Below are positions 16,104-44,688 of a DNA stretch of 64,000 nt, in pieces; within the stretch, counting starts at the first letter, position 1, and every line of letters begins with the position of its first letter. The position numbers and the translations under genes are program-made. The stretch spans positions 1 through 64,000 of the IMG/VR virus record IMGVR_UViG_3300027772_000010; one strand, written 5' to 3'. This DNA comes from a virus. The notes beneath the pieces are model-generated. The model did not search any database. It was not told the origin of the DNA and saw only the letters and a program-made list of their open reading frames with translations.

Positions 16104-16796
16104 TTAATATGTTTTATTTAATATAAATATATCACTATATATTGAGTTCCCTACATTATTACTTCCCCATTGCACAGTTACATTTAGGGTATTGCTTATT
16201 GTGGTGTTGAAGGTCGTATTATTGATTACATTAAATGCAAAGCCTTGAGTTGATGCATTAGAAGTTTTAATATAATGAAATGAGCCAAGTGAAACTATGG
16301 ATGCTACAGTTGCACCGCCTATTTGTCTAATCGTAAAATCAATGTTTAAACTCCAAACATCATTTATTATTGAGTTTGTTAAATTTTGCACCCCACTATC
16401 CAATAATACAACGCCATTTGATTTAGTTCTTATTCTTATGGTTTGATTGTTAGCTGCATTTATAATTCCTCCAAAAATACATCTAAAACTATCTCCAACT
16501 TGAAATCCATTTGCAGGAACTGTTAAAGTTCCGACACCTCCGTTAATTAAAGAACTTTCTACTGTTGTTCCTGTTATAGGAGTTGAATTTCCTGTTTGAG
16601 CAAATAACCCTTGAGTATTTGAGTGAGTTACCCAATCTCCTTGTTGGTTTAATAATAAATTAGGATTACCTGAATCACTAATTCCTAAGCAATCTTTAAC
16701 TATGCAACAAAAATTAGCACAGCTACTATATAATAAGTTATATAATTTTCTTCCTGCTTTATAACCAAAGAGGTCTATAATTTTTTGCTTAGTCAT
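16104..16796 (-). CDS. Fibre/decoration protein; N-terminus paralogous to 15151-16092
   Basis: Same ~55-aa Cys-containing N-terminus with a different beta-rich C-domain. Confidence 0.55.
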   Translation of the reverse strand: MTKQKIIDLFGYKAGRKLYNLLYSSCANFCCIVKDCLGISDSGNPNLLLNQQGDWVTHSNTQGLFAQTGNSTPITGTTVESSLINGGVGTLTVPANGFQVGDSFRCIFGGIINAANNQTIRIRTKSNGVVLLDSGVQNLTNSIINDVWSLNIDFTIRQIGGATVASIVSLGSFHYIKTSNASTQGFAFNVINNTTFNTTISNTLNVTVQWGSNNVGNSIYSDIFILNKTY

Positions 16797-39909: not shown

Positions 39910-40101
39910 TTATTTTTTATGTTCTTCATAATAATTTAAAATAAATCCTAAAAGTACTACTATGTTCATACCACAAGATACCAGTACCTCATGTATATCC
40001 TCATAGATAGTAGTCATAAGGTGTATATGCCCCACTGTCCAAAAAGGAATAGCTAGGTTTTGTGAAATCCACACAATTAAATACTTGAAAAATTTTATCA
40101 T
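39910..40101 (-). CDS. Small membrane protein
   Basis: 63 aa with two hydrophobic stretches; promoter element at 40116-40123. Confidence 0.55.
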   Translation of the reverse strand: MIKFFKYLIVWISQNLAIPFWTVGHIHLMTTIYEDIHEVLVSCGMNIVVLLGFILNYYEEHKK

Positions 40102-40115
40102 ATTTAAATTTCATG

Positions 40116-40123
40116 CAAAATTA
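40116..40123 (-). promoter_or_regulatory. Bacteroidota -7 element re-initiating after the ncRNA terminator
   Basis: TAATTTTG, intergenic. Confidence 0.55.
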
Positions 40124-40146
40124 AATATTTTTTTTCAACTAGTAAT

Positions 40147-40189
40147 AAAAAAAAATACCAGCTTCTTCTAATTAAAGAAAAAACTGGTA
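40147..40189 (-). terminator. Intrinsic terminator closing the candidate ncRNA
   Basis: TACCAGTTTTTTCT-TTAATT-AGAAGAAGCTGGTA followed by T9. Confidence 0.75.
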
Positions 40190-40562
40190 CCTATAAGTAA
40201 AATATTGTTTATATAACTCTAACCCTTTAACTAATAAGTTAAATAAGTTCTTTTAAAGCATAAAAAGGTTAACCCAGACTTAACAGGCATACCAGTATTT
40301 TAGTAAACTTAGTTTCTTTGTTCCTATTAAGTAGTTGGTTTATAAGTAATCATATATCTCTACTTAGATTACCTACTATCCTGTATACATTAAAAGTAGA
40401 ATTACTCTATTTAAACTTTTAATCTTTCTCTCCTTACCCTTCAGGTGAGCTTGTTATCCTGGGAGGTCCTACCTTATTCAAAACTATCTAGTGAAATCCT
40501 TACCAACCAACTTTTCAGTTCAAATCTCAGGGCACTAGAATTTGTCTCAGTGAAAAAACTGA
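40147..40562 (-). ncRNA. Candidate large structured non-coding RNA (~415 nt)
   Basis: Promoter TAACTTTG upstream, terminator at the 3' end, no ORF, several helices including a 13/14-bp long-range helix and a 7-bp pseudoknot. Confidence 0.6.
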
Positions 40563-40564
40563 TG

Positions 40565-40572
40565 CAAAGTTA
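40565..40572 (-). promoter_or_regulatory. Bacteroidota housekeeping-sigma -7 element
   Basis: TAACTTTG matches TAnnTTTG and points into the ORF-free unit. Confidence 0.65.
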
Positions 40573-40775
40573 AGTAAAAAAAAGTTATTGATACCATATT
40601 TTTTAAAAATTTTTCTGAAGACCCCGTAAAATCTAAATTTTTTAAAATTTTTTTTAACCCCCTAGGCAAAATTGTTTTTGAAATTGAGTGCTGGAGTATC
40701 CCTCCCTCCAAGCCCCAGCTAACTTCGGGATTTTGGAATAGCCCCACCTATTATTAACAATTAAATTTTTCAATT

Positions 40776-41168
40776 ATGCAATCAAATTCCAGTACAACTG
40801 TAGTAGGCTCAGCCACTTACACACAAATTGATACTCTAGTAGTGTCACCAATTACTTGTCAGATAACTTCTAGCAAGGTAGTCCACTCTGACAAAGATAA
40901 CTCTGACACTCAAGTATTTGAGCTTGAATTTCTAGGGGAGTATAAAGGCGCAGGTATGCAAAAGGCTTATAGAAGATTAGGCCAAGGTATCACCAAGACT
41001 GGCGAAGCCTTTACTGTAGCACCTTTGAAGACTTTGGACAACTGCGAGATTATAGTTACCAAGAGAGATTCTGATGGTACTGTATTCTTCTCTGTTAAAG
41101 GCAGAGCAAAGGATTTCACTGCTGAAGCTGCTGATGCTGCTGCAAGAGCCAAGAGTATCTTTGGTTAA
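40776..41168 (+). CDS. First early gene; beta-rich hypothetical protein
   Basis: 130 aa, visibly less AT-rich than its neighbours, with its own terminator. Confidence 0.7.
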   Translation: MQSNSSTTVVGSATYTQIDTLVVSPITCQITSSKVVHSDKDNSDTQVFELEFLGEYKGAGMQKAYRRLGQGITKTGEAFTVAPLKTLDNCEIIVTKRDSDGTVFFSVKGRAKDFTAEAADAAARAKSIFG

Positions 41169-41172
41169 AAAT

Positions 41173-41200
41173 AAGGGGAGAAATCCCCTTGTTTTTTTTT
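41173..41200 (+). terminator. Intrinsic terminator
   Basis: AAGGGGA-GAAA-TCCCCTT-G-T9. Confidence 0.85.
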
Positions 41201-41439
41201 AGTATTTTTAACACATTTAATAGGAAAAGAAATATAATAATTTATCTAATTTTTAATTTATTAATTAAAACACAAAATAAATTATTTATTTTCTAAACCA
41301 ATTTATTTTTATTTAATTACCTATTTAACAAAAAAATTAATCTTAAACTCTACATTGTTAGTTGCCATATCTAACAACATAAAGTTTTCAAGTTTGGTAT
41401 CTATAATACCTAATTTTTTTTGTTAATAGTTTGGAAATG

Positions 41440-41481
41440 AGGGAGTTTGGTTGGTAGTATTACTAAGAACTCCCTTTTTTC
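41440..41481 (+). terminator. Terminator-like hairpin
   Basis: AGGGAGTT...AACTCCCT followed by T runs. Confidence 0.65.
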
Positions 41482-41545
41482 CTTTTTTTTCAAAACACAT
41501 TATAGGCCTTTTGGTACATTATATAGCAAAATGTTTATTTTTTAT

Positions 41546-41598
41546 ACCTGAGCTACAGGGTTTTTTAGATTACACAGAAGCTAAGTGAAAGTAATCTA
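41546..41598 (+). ncRNA. Two-hairpin RNA motif, copy 1
   Basis: ACCT-GAGCTACA-GGGT, then TAGATTAC-ACAGAAGCTAAGTGAAA-GTAATCTA. Confidence 0.6.
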
Positions 41599-41599
41599 T

Positions 41600-41705
41600 A
41601 TAATTAAATGCACCATAACTCACTTCCCAAGGGTGAGCAGTTGTAATATCAGTACAAAGTAGAAATACTGGGGTACTTATTACAATTGAGTGCAGAGGGA
41701 AATAA
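41600..41705 (+). ncRNA. Twister-like ribozyme candidate (P1-type order)
   Basis: AA-TGCAC (P2)...CTCAC-TTCCCAAGG-GTGAG (P4/L4), 11-bp P5, GTGCA-GAGGG; loop CCC can pair with GGG. Confidence 0.5.
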
Positions 41706-41828
41706 AAACTTAACAATCCTAAGTTGTTGAAGGCACTTAGTTCCCTAATAATTTACGAATATTGAATTAACAACAGTTCTTTATAGTATTTTATTAGGGT
41801 TTTAGTGTAAAACACAATCCATTATTAA

Positions 41829-41881
41829 ATCCTGAGCTACAAGGATCAAGAACTACTACAGAAGCTTAGTGAACAGTAGTT
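41829..41881 (+). ncRNA. Two-hairpin RNA motif, copy 2
   Basis: ATCCT-GAGCTACA-AGGAT, then AACTACT-ACAGAAGCTTAGTGAAC-AGTAGTT; loops conserved with copy 1 while the stems differ but still pair. Confidence 0.6.
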
Positions 41882-41909
41882 TTTATAATTAATATTAAAC
41901 AATATAACT

Positions 41910-42008
41910 ATGTTAGGAATTATAGTAATTTTCATAATGGTCTACGGATCATATTGTGCTAAGAAAGCACACCAAGAAATAATTAACAACAAAAAACTTT
42001 TTAAATAA
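41910..42008 (+). CDS. 32-aa membrane peptide, not in the ORF track
   Basis: MLGIIVIFIMVYGSYCAKKAHQEIINNKKLFK; A-rich leader. Confidence 0.4.
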   Translation: MLGIIVIFIMVYGSYCAKKAHQEIINNKKLFK

Positions 42009-42049
42009 CAAATAATTAACTTTATTAACACTAAAAATTAACAAAAAAA

Positions 42050-42649
42050 ATGGAAAATTTATTTAACAATTTACAAGAACCAACAGGAGACATTAAAGTA
42101 AGTACAGAAAAAGAATGGTTATCTCTTAATTTAGGAGGAACTATTGTACTACAAAAAGGAAATTTTTCTCAATCATTTACATATTGGGGAAATGTTAGTA
42201 AAATGAATTTTAATAACGCTAACTATATAACAATGGAAGATTGTGATTGGGATACACATACTACTATGCTAGGCAATCTTAAAATAGATAGTATATCTAA
42301 ACTTAGAACTACATTAGAGAATAGTGGGTTAAAAACACTTTCAGATAGTCTTAATTTTAGCACTGAAGAAATAAAAAAAGCTATATTTTCTATTGTTCCT
42401 AACTCAACCATAGTAAAAAATGTATTTAGAGAAAACTTTATATTATGGGAATCATTAACAGATAATGAAAAAAAAGTAATAAGAGTAAAAGATGCAATAG
42501 AAAATTACAATGATTACTTTGTCAACAACCCTTATAAATTAAAATATTTAATCTTAAAAGAAGATGGTAAATTAGATGGTGAAACAATACCAACAATAGA
42601 TCAACTAAATGAAAGATTAAATGACTTATTATTTAACATTAAAAATTAA
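42050..42649 (+). CDS. Early hypothetical protein
   Basis: 199-aa ORF with ATTAACAAAAAAAATG leader. Confidence 0.7.
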   Translation: MENLFNNLQEPTGDIKVSTEKEWLSLNLGGTIVLQKGNFSQSFTYWGNVSKMNFNNANYITMEDCDWDTHTTMLGNLKIDSISKLRTTLENSGLKTLSDSLNFSTEEIKKAIFSIVPNSTIVKNVFRENFILWESLTDNEKKVIRVKDAIENYNDYFVNNPYKLKYLILKEDGKLDGETIPTIDQLNERLNDLLFNIKN

Positions 42650-42881
42650 CAACATGAATTCAAATTTTTTATCAAAAGTATGTATAGCTTTATTTTTAAC
42701 AACCTTATTTTTATTAATTTCCTCATTATTATATGTTTATCATCAAACCAATTTAAACGCAACTTTGTTTGAAGTAGAGTTAGTTGATAGAGATATATTA
42801 GTTTATGACAATGATAATTTTGTAGGATCAGTAGAATTGCAAGGGCAATTAGACAGTCTAATGACTGATTACTTGCAGTAA
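42621..42881 (+). CDS. Early membrane protein
   Basis: Single TM segment; the true start is probably the internal MNSNF. Confidence 0.55.
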   Translation: MTYYLTLKINNMNSNFLSKVCIALFLTTLFLLISSLLYVYHQTNLNATLFEVELVDRDILVYDNDNFVGSVELQGQLDSLMTDYLQ

Positions 42882-42924
42882 ATTTATAAAGACATTAAAC
42901 TTAACTAACAAACCTTTTAATGGG

Positions 42925-42965
42925 ACTGTACCTTTTAGCATTTAGCTATTAGGTGCAGTTTTTTA
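42925..42965 (+). terminator. Terminator-like hairpin
   Basis: ACTGTACCT...AGGTGCAGT followed by a T run. Confidence 0.6.
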
Positions 42966-42989
42966 TTTATTAACATTAACTTATTTAAA

Positions 42990-43196
42990 ATGAAAGATCC
43001 AAACTTAACAAATTTAATTGATATTAAGTTAGCTGCTTTGGTAGCTCGTAAAAAGTCTGAAAATAAACTTAGTAATCAAATAGCAGAGAATAAACTTTGG
43101 CCTTCAACATTACAAGAAAATTCAGTATCACATTTTAGTGCTCAAAACACTAACTATAGTGCAATAATACAAACCATTAAAAATTATAATGGATAA
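42990..43196 (+). CDS. Early hypothetical protein
   Basis: 68-aa ORF with A/T-rich leader. Confidence 0.55.
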   Translation: MKDPNLTNLIDIKLAALVARKKSENKLSNQIAENKLWPSTLQENSVSHFSAQNTNYSAIIQTIKNYNG

Positions 43197-43317
43197 CAAA
43201 TACATTTAAGGCATTGTATATAGTTGCCACACAAAACACAATATAGTTTTAAATGTATAGGTAGCTCAAACCTTAATCAGAGCTCTGTTTGTCAACTACA
43301 TAATAAGTTGATACCTT

Positions 43318-43350
43318 GGTGGTTATATGGTTAAACCACTTTTTATTTTT
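43318..43350 (+). terminator. Terminator-like hairpin
   Basis: GTGGTT-ATATGGTTA-AACCAC-TTTTT. Confidence 0.55.
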
Positions 43351-43458
43351 TAAATAAGATTATGACTAAAAAGAAAAAAATTAGTATAGTATTTGACTTT
43401 GAATCTGTTGTAGAAATAGATTGTTTAGATTAAAAATTAACCTATTAACAAAAAAAAT

Positions 43459-44688
43459 ATGAAATTACCAATATTCTCAGACTCATTTATAGAGTTTTTA
43501 AACAACATTAAAAAAGAATCTAGAATTGCTAGATTAATAATATCTGTCATTCAAATGCACAATGATGGTTTTAAGAATATGTTACCTAGAGTATTAACTA
43601 ATGACAATGTTAATTATATTACATATAGATCTGATGGTAACATATCATTTTTACCTACTGGAAAAGAACACGTTGTAAATGATGACAACACTTGGTCTAG
43701 AACTAATAGACAATCTGGCAAACCAGCTAAAATAATTCGCAAATTATTCACAGACAAAATGTTATCATTACTTAATGAACAAGACTTTGAAATATTTAAT
43801 AACTACTATAAATGTAAATTTAACACTACAGGATATAGATTTGAATTATTAGATAATACTCAAATTGCTGAAGTTTATGATATGACTTTAGAAAATGGAA
43901 GTTCAAGTCTAAATAATTCTTGTATGAATGGTAAAAGTGATTGTTTAGATATTTACACTTATTGTAAAGACTTAAAAATTTTAGCTTTATTTAACCAAAA
44001 CAATGAATTAGCAGGTAGAGCATTAGTATGGACTATTATAGATGAAGAAATAGATGGATCAAAAATTATCTTAATGGATAGAGTTTATGTAACTCAGGAC
44101 TATTTATATGATTTATTTATAGAACATGCTACATCTAATAAATGGTGGTATAAACAAGATTATAAGTCTATGCATAGTAAAACTAGTTTTATTAATTCTG
44201 AAGGAAATGTTTTATATAGAAAGTTTAAAATATATACTGCTACAGATTTTGACACTTATCCTTATATAGATACTTTTCAATATGGTGATGATGGTTATTT
44301 AACAAACCAGCCTGATGGTAAATATGAATATTCTAGTACAGATGGTGAAAGATCTGGAGGTGATGTTTATGATGATATTACAGGTAATTATATAAGTCAA
44401 GATGATGCAGTAACAATAGAGTATGGTGAATATGAAGGTGAAAGAACACATATAGATAATACTGTAATGGTTAATGATTCTTATTATTGGAAAGACAGTG
44501 AAGATTTATGTATTATTAATTATGAATACTATCTTAAAGAAGATTGTGTATATTCTGATTATGATGATGAATACTATTTAGAAGACGATTGTGTATATTC
44601 TGAATATCATAGCACACATATATTAATATCAGATGCTTATGAAGTTGATGGTAACTATTATCATCAAGATATTGTAAACAAATTATAA
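43459..44688 (+). CDS. Phage protein with SCM / GRALVW / MDRVY / PYIDT motifs and acidic C-terminal repeats
   Basis: 409 aa; motifs visible directly; function unknown. Confidence 0.7.
   Translation: MKLPIFSDSFIEFLNNIKKESRIARLIISVIQMHNDGFKNMLPRVLTNDNVNYITYRSDGNISFLPTGKEHVVNDDNTWSRTNRQSGKPAKIIRKLFTDKMLSLLNEQDFEIFNNYYKCKFNTTGYRFELLDNTQIAEVYDMTLENGSSSLNNSCMNGKSDCLDIYTYCKDLKILALFNQNNELAGRALVWTIIDEEIDGSKIILMDRVYVTQDYLYDLFIEHATSNKWWYKQDYKSMHSKTSFINSEGNVLYRKFKIYTATDFDTYPYIDTFQYGDDGYLTNQPDGKYEYSSTDGERSGGDVYDDITGNYISQDDAVTIEYGEYEGERTHIDNTVMVNDSYYWKDSEDLCIINYEYYLKEDCVYSDYDDEYYLEDDCVYSEYHSTHILISDAYEVDGNYYHQDIVNKL
44521..44610 (+). repeat. 45-bp in-frame tandem duplication
   Basis: Encodes EYYLKEDCVYSDYDD / EYYLEDDCVYSEYHS. 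Confidence 0.7.

Follow-up and report, generated by a model that had tools for sequence, protein, structure and literature searches.

The window (the whole 64,000-nt stretch of DNA that was analysed) belongs to a crAss-like phage with a GC content of ~27%. Terminase, portal and major-head PHROGs are found on its minus arm and a DNA polymerase on its plus arm. The element described here sits in a leader of ~880 nt that is free of ORFs and lies between an ORF at 40776-41168 and an ORF at 42050-42649; both ORFs and the element are on the same (plus) strand. A strong intrinsic terminator (41167-41196, plus strand) directly follows the upstream ORF, and ~250 nt further on there is a second hairpin with a T-run (41433-41490, plus strand), the loop of which exceeds the limit of our terminator scan. 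Because this terminator and the second hairpin with its T-run precede it, the ribozyme leader may be a transcription unit of its own.

Relatives of the locus identified through the downstream 199-aa protein and a peptidase mostly carry other DNA upstream, and only one of them, contig L002 (the same as L007 and L042), keeps the element. Note that the element is flanked by two copies of a two-hairpin motif (41548-41589 and 41832-41873, plus strand), in which the loops (AGCUA and ACAGAAGCUNAGUGAA) are conserved and the stems are rewritten. Shuffled sequences contained on average 0.00 matches to this motif, no Rfam entry matched it, and among 129 fetched loci it occurred only in that same closely related contig. 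We considered whether this flanking kissing-loop motif belongs to the ribozyme and rejected the idea, as the motif is confined to this phage lineage and absent beside other copies of the element.

The stretch studied comprises 95 nt, in which the parts follow one another in the order P1 - N^AA - P2 - C - P4 (loop UUCCCAAGG) - P5 - A - P2' - GAGGG - P1'. They are as follows.

41604-41605, plus strand: 5' strand of P1 (UU), pairing with AA at 41700-41701; 2 bp at most in the window copy
41606-41607, plus strand: predicted scissile bond, A41606 (-1) / A41607 (+1), placed by its position in the twister frame N^AA-P2
41609-41613, plus strand: 5' strand of P2 (UGCAC), pairing with 41690-41694
41614, plus strand: C corresponding to the conserved C in 'NC' of twister T2; may form a T2 pair with G41631
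41619-41623, plus strand: 5' strand of P4 (CUCAC), pairing with 41633-41637
41624-41632, plus strand: L4 loop UUCCCAAGG (DNA TTCCCAAGG), closing P4
41626-41628, plus strand: 5' strand of T1 (CCC), within the L4 loop
41631, plus strand: G, candidate T2 partner in the 3' part of the L4 loop, perhaps together with G41632
41633-41637, plus strand: 3' strand of P4 (GUGAG), partner of 41619-41623
41638-41688, plus strand: P5 hairpin, 51 nt, with a conserved 11-bp base (41638-41648 with 41678-41688)
41649-41677, plus strand: lineage-specific P5 tip, beyond the 11-bp base
41689, plus strand: unpaired A between P5 and P2', A in 72 of 72 copies of the family described below
41690-41694, plus strand: 3' strand of P2 (GUGCA), with GAGGG adjoining directly 3'
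41695-41699, plus strand: GAGGG, of which GGG at 41697-41699 is the 3' strand of T1
41700-41701, plus strand: 3' strand of P1 (AA), partner of UU at 41604-41605

An earlier note on this DNA, made from the letters alone, had pointed out the pairing of TGCAC with GTGCA followed by GAGGG, the hairpin CTCAC/GTGAG with its loop, an 11-bp helix at the P5 position and an A at -1, and each of these is present in the sequence. The minimum free energy (MFE) fold of 41596-41710 is a three-way junction built from the same three helices, the 11-bp helix included, with an energy of -30.2 kcal/mol as compared to -18.1 +/- 2.9 kcal/mol for shuffled sequences (z = -4.12; 0 of 200 shuffles as good). Note that in the MFE fold P4 gains two U.G pairs, and these would tie up the G's of T2.

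The element is a member of a family with at least ~170 copies in phage contigs, as found by two pattern scans of IMG/VR together with a covariance model. In the first scan a pattern for the loop and the 3' strand returned at least 119 stretches, at least ~75 of which have the full architecture; 62 distinct copies among the matches listed make up alignment A2. With a covariance model derived from A2, additional copies that had escaped the pattern came to light in the fetched loci, and alignment A3 holds 72 copies, again among the matches listed. Since the loop and GCAGAGGG had been set by the first pattern, a second scan was run that used as anchors solely the P5 base and the 5' strand, and left the loop and GAGGG free. 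The loci from this second scan contain at least 103 copies found by the model, 92 of them distinct (alignment A4, some rows of which were found by the model and not by the pattern anchor). Several contigs carry two or three family copies each. (One further model match in the window, at 16156-16270 on the minus strand with 21 bits, was judged to be spurious, as it lies in coding sequence and is without the loop and GAGGG.)

The window stretch itself is present in freshwater, lake and marine metagenomes, with small shares in two metatranscriptomes (assembled contigs), and its conserved halves (41607-41648 and 41681-41700) recur on many contigs on which the flanks and P5 interiors differ. Exact matches to the core also occur in seven metagenome-assembled genomes from freshwater (L232-L238). 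The labels of these genomes include Chitinophagaceae, Sediminibacterium, Phycisphaerales, Acidobacteriota and Saccharibacteria, among others; the matches may represent prophages or mis-binned phage contigs, and the hint they give as to the host is weak. A blastn search with window positions 40100-43500 found no match in the INPHARED phage collection, and a full-text search of the literature for the loop and 3' motifs returned no paper describing this subfamily.

Two loci resemble the family in part. Both L083:3511-3643 (plus strand) and L070:11543-11649 (minus strand) can form three-way junctions with UAA-P2, P4 and the conserved P5 base, and both are without the CCCAA loop and without GAGGG. 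Because the two halves of T1 have been lost together, these look-alikes are probably non-cleaving twins, and thus not every copy in the family need cleave.

The alignments argue that the predicted helices are maintained as helices. In A2, 93.7% of the cells in P2, P4 and P5 are paired, and 165 cells are double changes as compared to 36.5 in shuffles (0 of 500 shuffles as high), a signal that collapses once the partners are slid against each other. A3 and A4 repeat this result, and RNAalifold, unaided, recovers the same helices, P2 and P4 included. In particular, P2 is 100% paired in A3 and 99.3% paired in A4, with double changes at three positions; P4 is 99.4% and 99.1% paired in the same two alignments, with double changes in all 5 pairs; and the P5 base, the sequence of which is unusually conserved, is 88-95% paired, with double changes in 10 of its 11 pairs (A3, A4). 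Within the helices G.U cells outnumber A.C cells by 62 to 10, which argues that the structure belongs to the RNA of the sense strand. The earlier note had called P1 weak. This holds for the window copy, with its 2 bp, but not for the family, in which P1 is short but real: it begins at -2, abuts GAGGG and covaries. In A3 its first three pairs are formed in 82, 74 and 69% of copies, and each of them occurs as 4-6 pair types (A3, A4).

The earlier note had also looked to covariation of the pseudoknot pairs, and here the two pseudoknots behave differently. T1, which joins CCC of the loop to GGG of GAGGG, is 100% paired in A3 with no breaks, and contains double changes from CG to UA, AU and AU at its three positions (UCC with GGA in one copy, CAC with GUG in two and CCA with UGG in one). 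In A4, where loop and GAGGG had been left free by the scan, the pairing of T1 stands at 98.5%, and the A-U double changes number 11 and 12 (23 copies). The loop reads UUCCCAAGG in 74 rows of A4, UUCACAAGG in 12 and UUCCAAAGG in 12, and over A3 and A4 the 3' motif tracks the loop, such that GAGUG goes with CAC, GAUGG with CCA and GAGGA with UCC; the pairings counted in A4 were UUCCCAAGG with GAGGG (67 rows), UUCACAAGG with GAGUG (12 rows) and UUCCAAAGG with GAUGG (11 rows), with a few degenerate exceptions. That its pairing survives compensatory double changes at all three positions proves T1 to be real. (Of note, one family copy, L090:4197-4404 on the plus strand, has an insertion of ~80 nt between the 5' strand of P4 and the UUCCCAAGG loop, which suggests that the putative catalytic loop tolerates a large insert.)

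For T2, the earlier note had proposed that a CC/GG pairing replaces the GC/GC of twisters, and the alignments bear this out for at most one of the two pairs. The pair C41614-G41631 is possible, and its equivalent is C-G in 70 of 70 copies in A3 and in 90 of 92 distinct copies in A4; because the pair is invariant it gives no covariation signal. C41613, on the other hand, covaries with G41690, although it could also pair with G41632, and the two nucleotides behave as a fifth pair of P2 (CG 62 and UA 10 in A3; CG 81 and UA 8 in A4) with almost no mismatches. Single G-to-A changes of the loop G's, seen in only 2 copies of A4, are uninformative for T2. A two-pair CC/GG T2 is thus possible but unproven as judged from the alignments. 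Because C41613 covaries with G41690, T2 may be a single C-G pair atop a 5-bp P2, or the two pairings of C41613 may alternate.

Several positions outside the helices are nearly constant as well. The dinucleotide AA occupies +1/+2 in 70 of 72 copies and in 103 of 103 copies (A4), the few copies in which it is replaced including L122 and L067:6013. Of the 103 rows of A4, 98 retain the G that opens GAGGG, the exceptions being AAGGG (three rows) and degenerate copies, and UU..AAGG of the loop, the position of A41689 and the G-A of GAGGG are nearly invariant. U is found at -1 in 67 of 72 copies (~93-99% in the family), and the A at this position appears from the alignments to be peculiar to the window copy.

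We compared these features with those of the known self-cleaving RNAs. The twister self-cleaving ribozyme is said to go back to Roth et al. in 2014; the features of its consensus used here come from review articles and the consensus line of Rfam. In type-P1 twisters P1, P2 and P4 are essential, P0, P3 and P5 are optional, there are two pseudoknots, and about ten conserved nucleotides lie in L1 and L4 (PMC5408937). The family shares with twister P1 (RF03160) the order P1 - N^AA - P2 - NC - P4 loop (U)CCCAAG - P5 - A - P2' - GAGGG - P1', the loop (U)UCCCAAGG with a T1 of 3 bp between CCC of the loop and GGG of GAGGG, conservation of A(+1), of A(+2) and of the G that opens GAGGG, and an occurrence in phage-related DNA near other self-cleaving ribozymes. 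In addition, A41689 aligns with the run of A's that precedes P2' in the Rfam twister-P1 consensus. Unlike twisters in general, the family always has P5, with a conserved base sequence and a hypervariable tip; P5 counts among the recognised optional stems of twisters (PMC6154101, PMC5408937) but is reported in only ~1% of those annotated (PMC6154101). The family is without P3, and P1 has ~3-5 bp (2 bp in the window). Moreover, T2 of the family reads C/U-C with G-G, whereas that of twister reads G-C with G-C (GC after P2 in the Rfam consensus), and the first T2 nucleotide of the family covaries with the base 5' of P2'.

Twister-sister (RF02681) resembles the family in having a multi-helix junction, a P4-type loop similar to that of twister and phage-like contexts. 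However, twister-sister is reported to be incapable of the double-pseudoknot fold of twister and to differ in the nucleotides at the cleavage site (PMC6154101), whereas the family has T1 and the cut-site context N^AA; nor did any Rfam search that we ran on the window and its relatives return a match to twister-sister. Pistol (RF02679) and hatchet (RF02678) are likewise small self-cleaving RNAs and are intergenic in the same phage contigs (L060 and L088), but their folds are unrelated to that of the family, even if their task is presumably the same; for the window itself, Rfam gave neither a pistol nor a hatchet match.

The earlier note had suggested scoring the window copy against the twister-P1 model, and had taken the lack of any score to speak against a twister. 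No score was obtained: in searches with 551 nt and 131 nt of the window, no Rfam family reached its gathering score and no twister model matched even at E<=10, the matches consisting of noise from snoRNA and miRNA models at 10-23 bits. A search of five whole contigs with RF03160 also found no match. However, when a natural short-P5 member in contig L088 (6345-6440) was searched alone, its best Rfam match was twister-P1 (20.2 bits, E 0.02), with an alignment (L088:6361-6426) that spans model positions 1-68 from P1-UAA-P2 through AA-P2'-GAGGG-P1'. We therefore attribute the missing score of the window copy to its 51-nt P5 insert and not to a different fold. The gathering cut-off of RF03160 is 67.2 bits, a curated score threshold and not a structural feature, and the subfamily escapes Rfam because the 20.2 bits of even the short-P5 member lie far under it.

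Family copies mostly lie between genes. For 62 of 72 copies there is no overlap with any ORF of at least 70 aa, and almost without exception the two adjacent ORFs run in the same direction as the copy. A pistol ribozyme (L060:13780-13840, minus strand, 56.2 bits) lies ~0.5 kb from a family copy on the same strand, and a hatchet ribozyme (L088:8518-8654, minus strand, 80.7 bits) lies 1.6-2.2 kb from two copies, also on the same strand. This proximity is in keeping with reports that self-cleaving ribozymes cluster together and close to phage genes (PMC10085705, PMC6765202). (Note that a 461-aa DUF2828/DUF7788 protein assigned to PHROG 850, 'RNA-binding protein', recurs ~200-270 nt downstream of copies, as at L071:3266-4651 on the plus strand and also in L123 and L066, and that an unannotated 303-aa protein lies ~40-230 nt downstream of copies in eight other loci.)

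Taken together, the comparisons argue, with a probability that we put at roughly 85%, that window positions 41604-41701 (plus strand) encode a type-P1 twister self-cleaving ribozyme that belongs to a large phage subfamily. The earlier note's reading of a twister variant is thereby borne out by the twister order of parts, by the compensatory changes in T1 and by the best match of the short-P5 member to twister-P1. Members of this subfamily appear always to have the P5 hairpin, to be without P3 and to have a short P1, and were sampled mostly from freshwater records, with marine records too. The element falls within a known ribozyme class and is not a new kind of RNA, and the subfamily is uncatalogued in Rfam. 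T2 is the real departure from the canonical twister; the A at -1, the weak P1 and the P5 are compatible with published twisters.

We consider it unlikely that the element is instead a repurposed RNA whose twister fold now has another use, for example as a stable structure at the 5' end, as a module that binds protein or as a scaffold for the variable P5 tip, catalysis having been lost or become irrelevant. The positions conserved most in the family are those of the predicted active site, namely the AA, the first G of GAGGG, AAG of the loop and the compensated T1, which is not what such an RNA would lead one to expect, even though some copies have the AA replaced and the look-alikes are without the loop motif and GAGGG. 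The weak P1 of the window copy and its A at -1 might likewise be read as signs of decay, as might the non-canonical T2, with C41613 pairing elsewhere, and the absence of an Rfam score at the cut-off. However, imperfections of this kind leave assayed twisters active. In an assay of 1,948 ribozymes any base was tolerated at -1, with an average fraction cleaved of 0.72 for A vs 0.76, and an imperfect -1 base, P1 or one pseudoknot pair left the ribozymes active (PMC11662667); P1 is in any case reported to be dispensable for cleavage (PMC6154101). As judged from its sequence, the window element is thus probably active as a ribozyme.

It is very unlikely that the family is a dispersed repeat that acts as DNA, for instance in recombination, in homing or as a promoter module, and that its palindromes only look like RNA helices. 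A repeat of this sort would be in keeping with conserved halves that recur on many contigs amid unrelated flanks and interiors, and with the unusual sequence conservation of the P5 base, but it leaves unexplained why the helices keep pairing by way of many different compensatory changes, why the pseudoknot covaries, why the excess of G.U over A.C places the structure on one strand only and why copies are co-oriented with the flanking genes. That an AT-rich leader resembles twister by chance, an idea for which the silence of the Rfam models on the window copy might be cited, is scarcely credible and is refuted by a family of homologous copies that covaries in every element.

The part of the putative ribozyme that varies most is the tip of P5, which among the matches listed extends 15-142 nt beyond the 11-bp base. 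At least 152 distinct combinations of core and tip fall into 128 clusters, 110 of which are singletons, and in 16 of 18 multi-member clusters among the matches listed one and the same tip occurs with differing P4 helices. Similarly, in the closest relative of the window among the matches listed (L002, 93% identical), the core and flanks are almost identical and the tip (L002:2426-2465) is unrelated in sequence to the window tip at 41649-41677. Across the family the tips thus appear to behave like swappable cassettes. With P5 obligatory and its tip hypervariable, one might imagine that the tip is a functional payload or a sensor and that competition for C41613, between the fifth P2 pair and T2, is a switch; the element would then be a regulated (allosteric or partner-dependent) twister, or a self-trimming scaffold that delivers small phage RNAs, rather than a constitutive cutter. 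We regard this extension of the twister reading as speculative and doubtful.

If the element is a twister, its fold would place the A41606-A41607 bond in the active site. By analogy with twisters of known structure, the 2'-OH of A41606 would attack its own 3' phosphate, with G41695, the first G of GAGGG, as candidate general base and A41607 (+1) as candidate general acid. The products would be an upstream RNA with a 2',3'-cyclic phosphate end and a downstream RNA with a 5'-OH at A41607. Cleavage at 41606/41607 would release the 5' leader module upstream, and the RNA with the ORF at 42050-42649 would keep the body of the ribozyme as its structured 5' end, with a 5'-OH. We infer that the most likely role of the element is the protein-independent cutting of polycistronic or leader transcripts of the phage.

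These findings indicate that the Rfam twister models miss a large and environmentally abundant branch of the class, and that annotation pipelines could recognise these elements if given a new seed alignment. The family also provides a natural experiment, in that it comprises at least ~170 variants with compensated T1, a changed T2 and a P5 open to almost any insert. The ORF-free 'RNA islands' of these phage genomes partly resolve into known ribozyme types. The findings also suggest that transcripts are processed independently of protein in this crAss-like phage and its relatives. Such processing would fix where 5'-OH ends lie and may determine how stable the downstream mRNA is.
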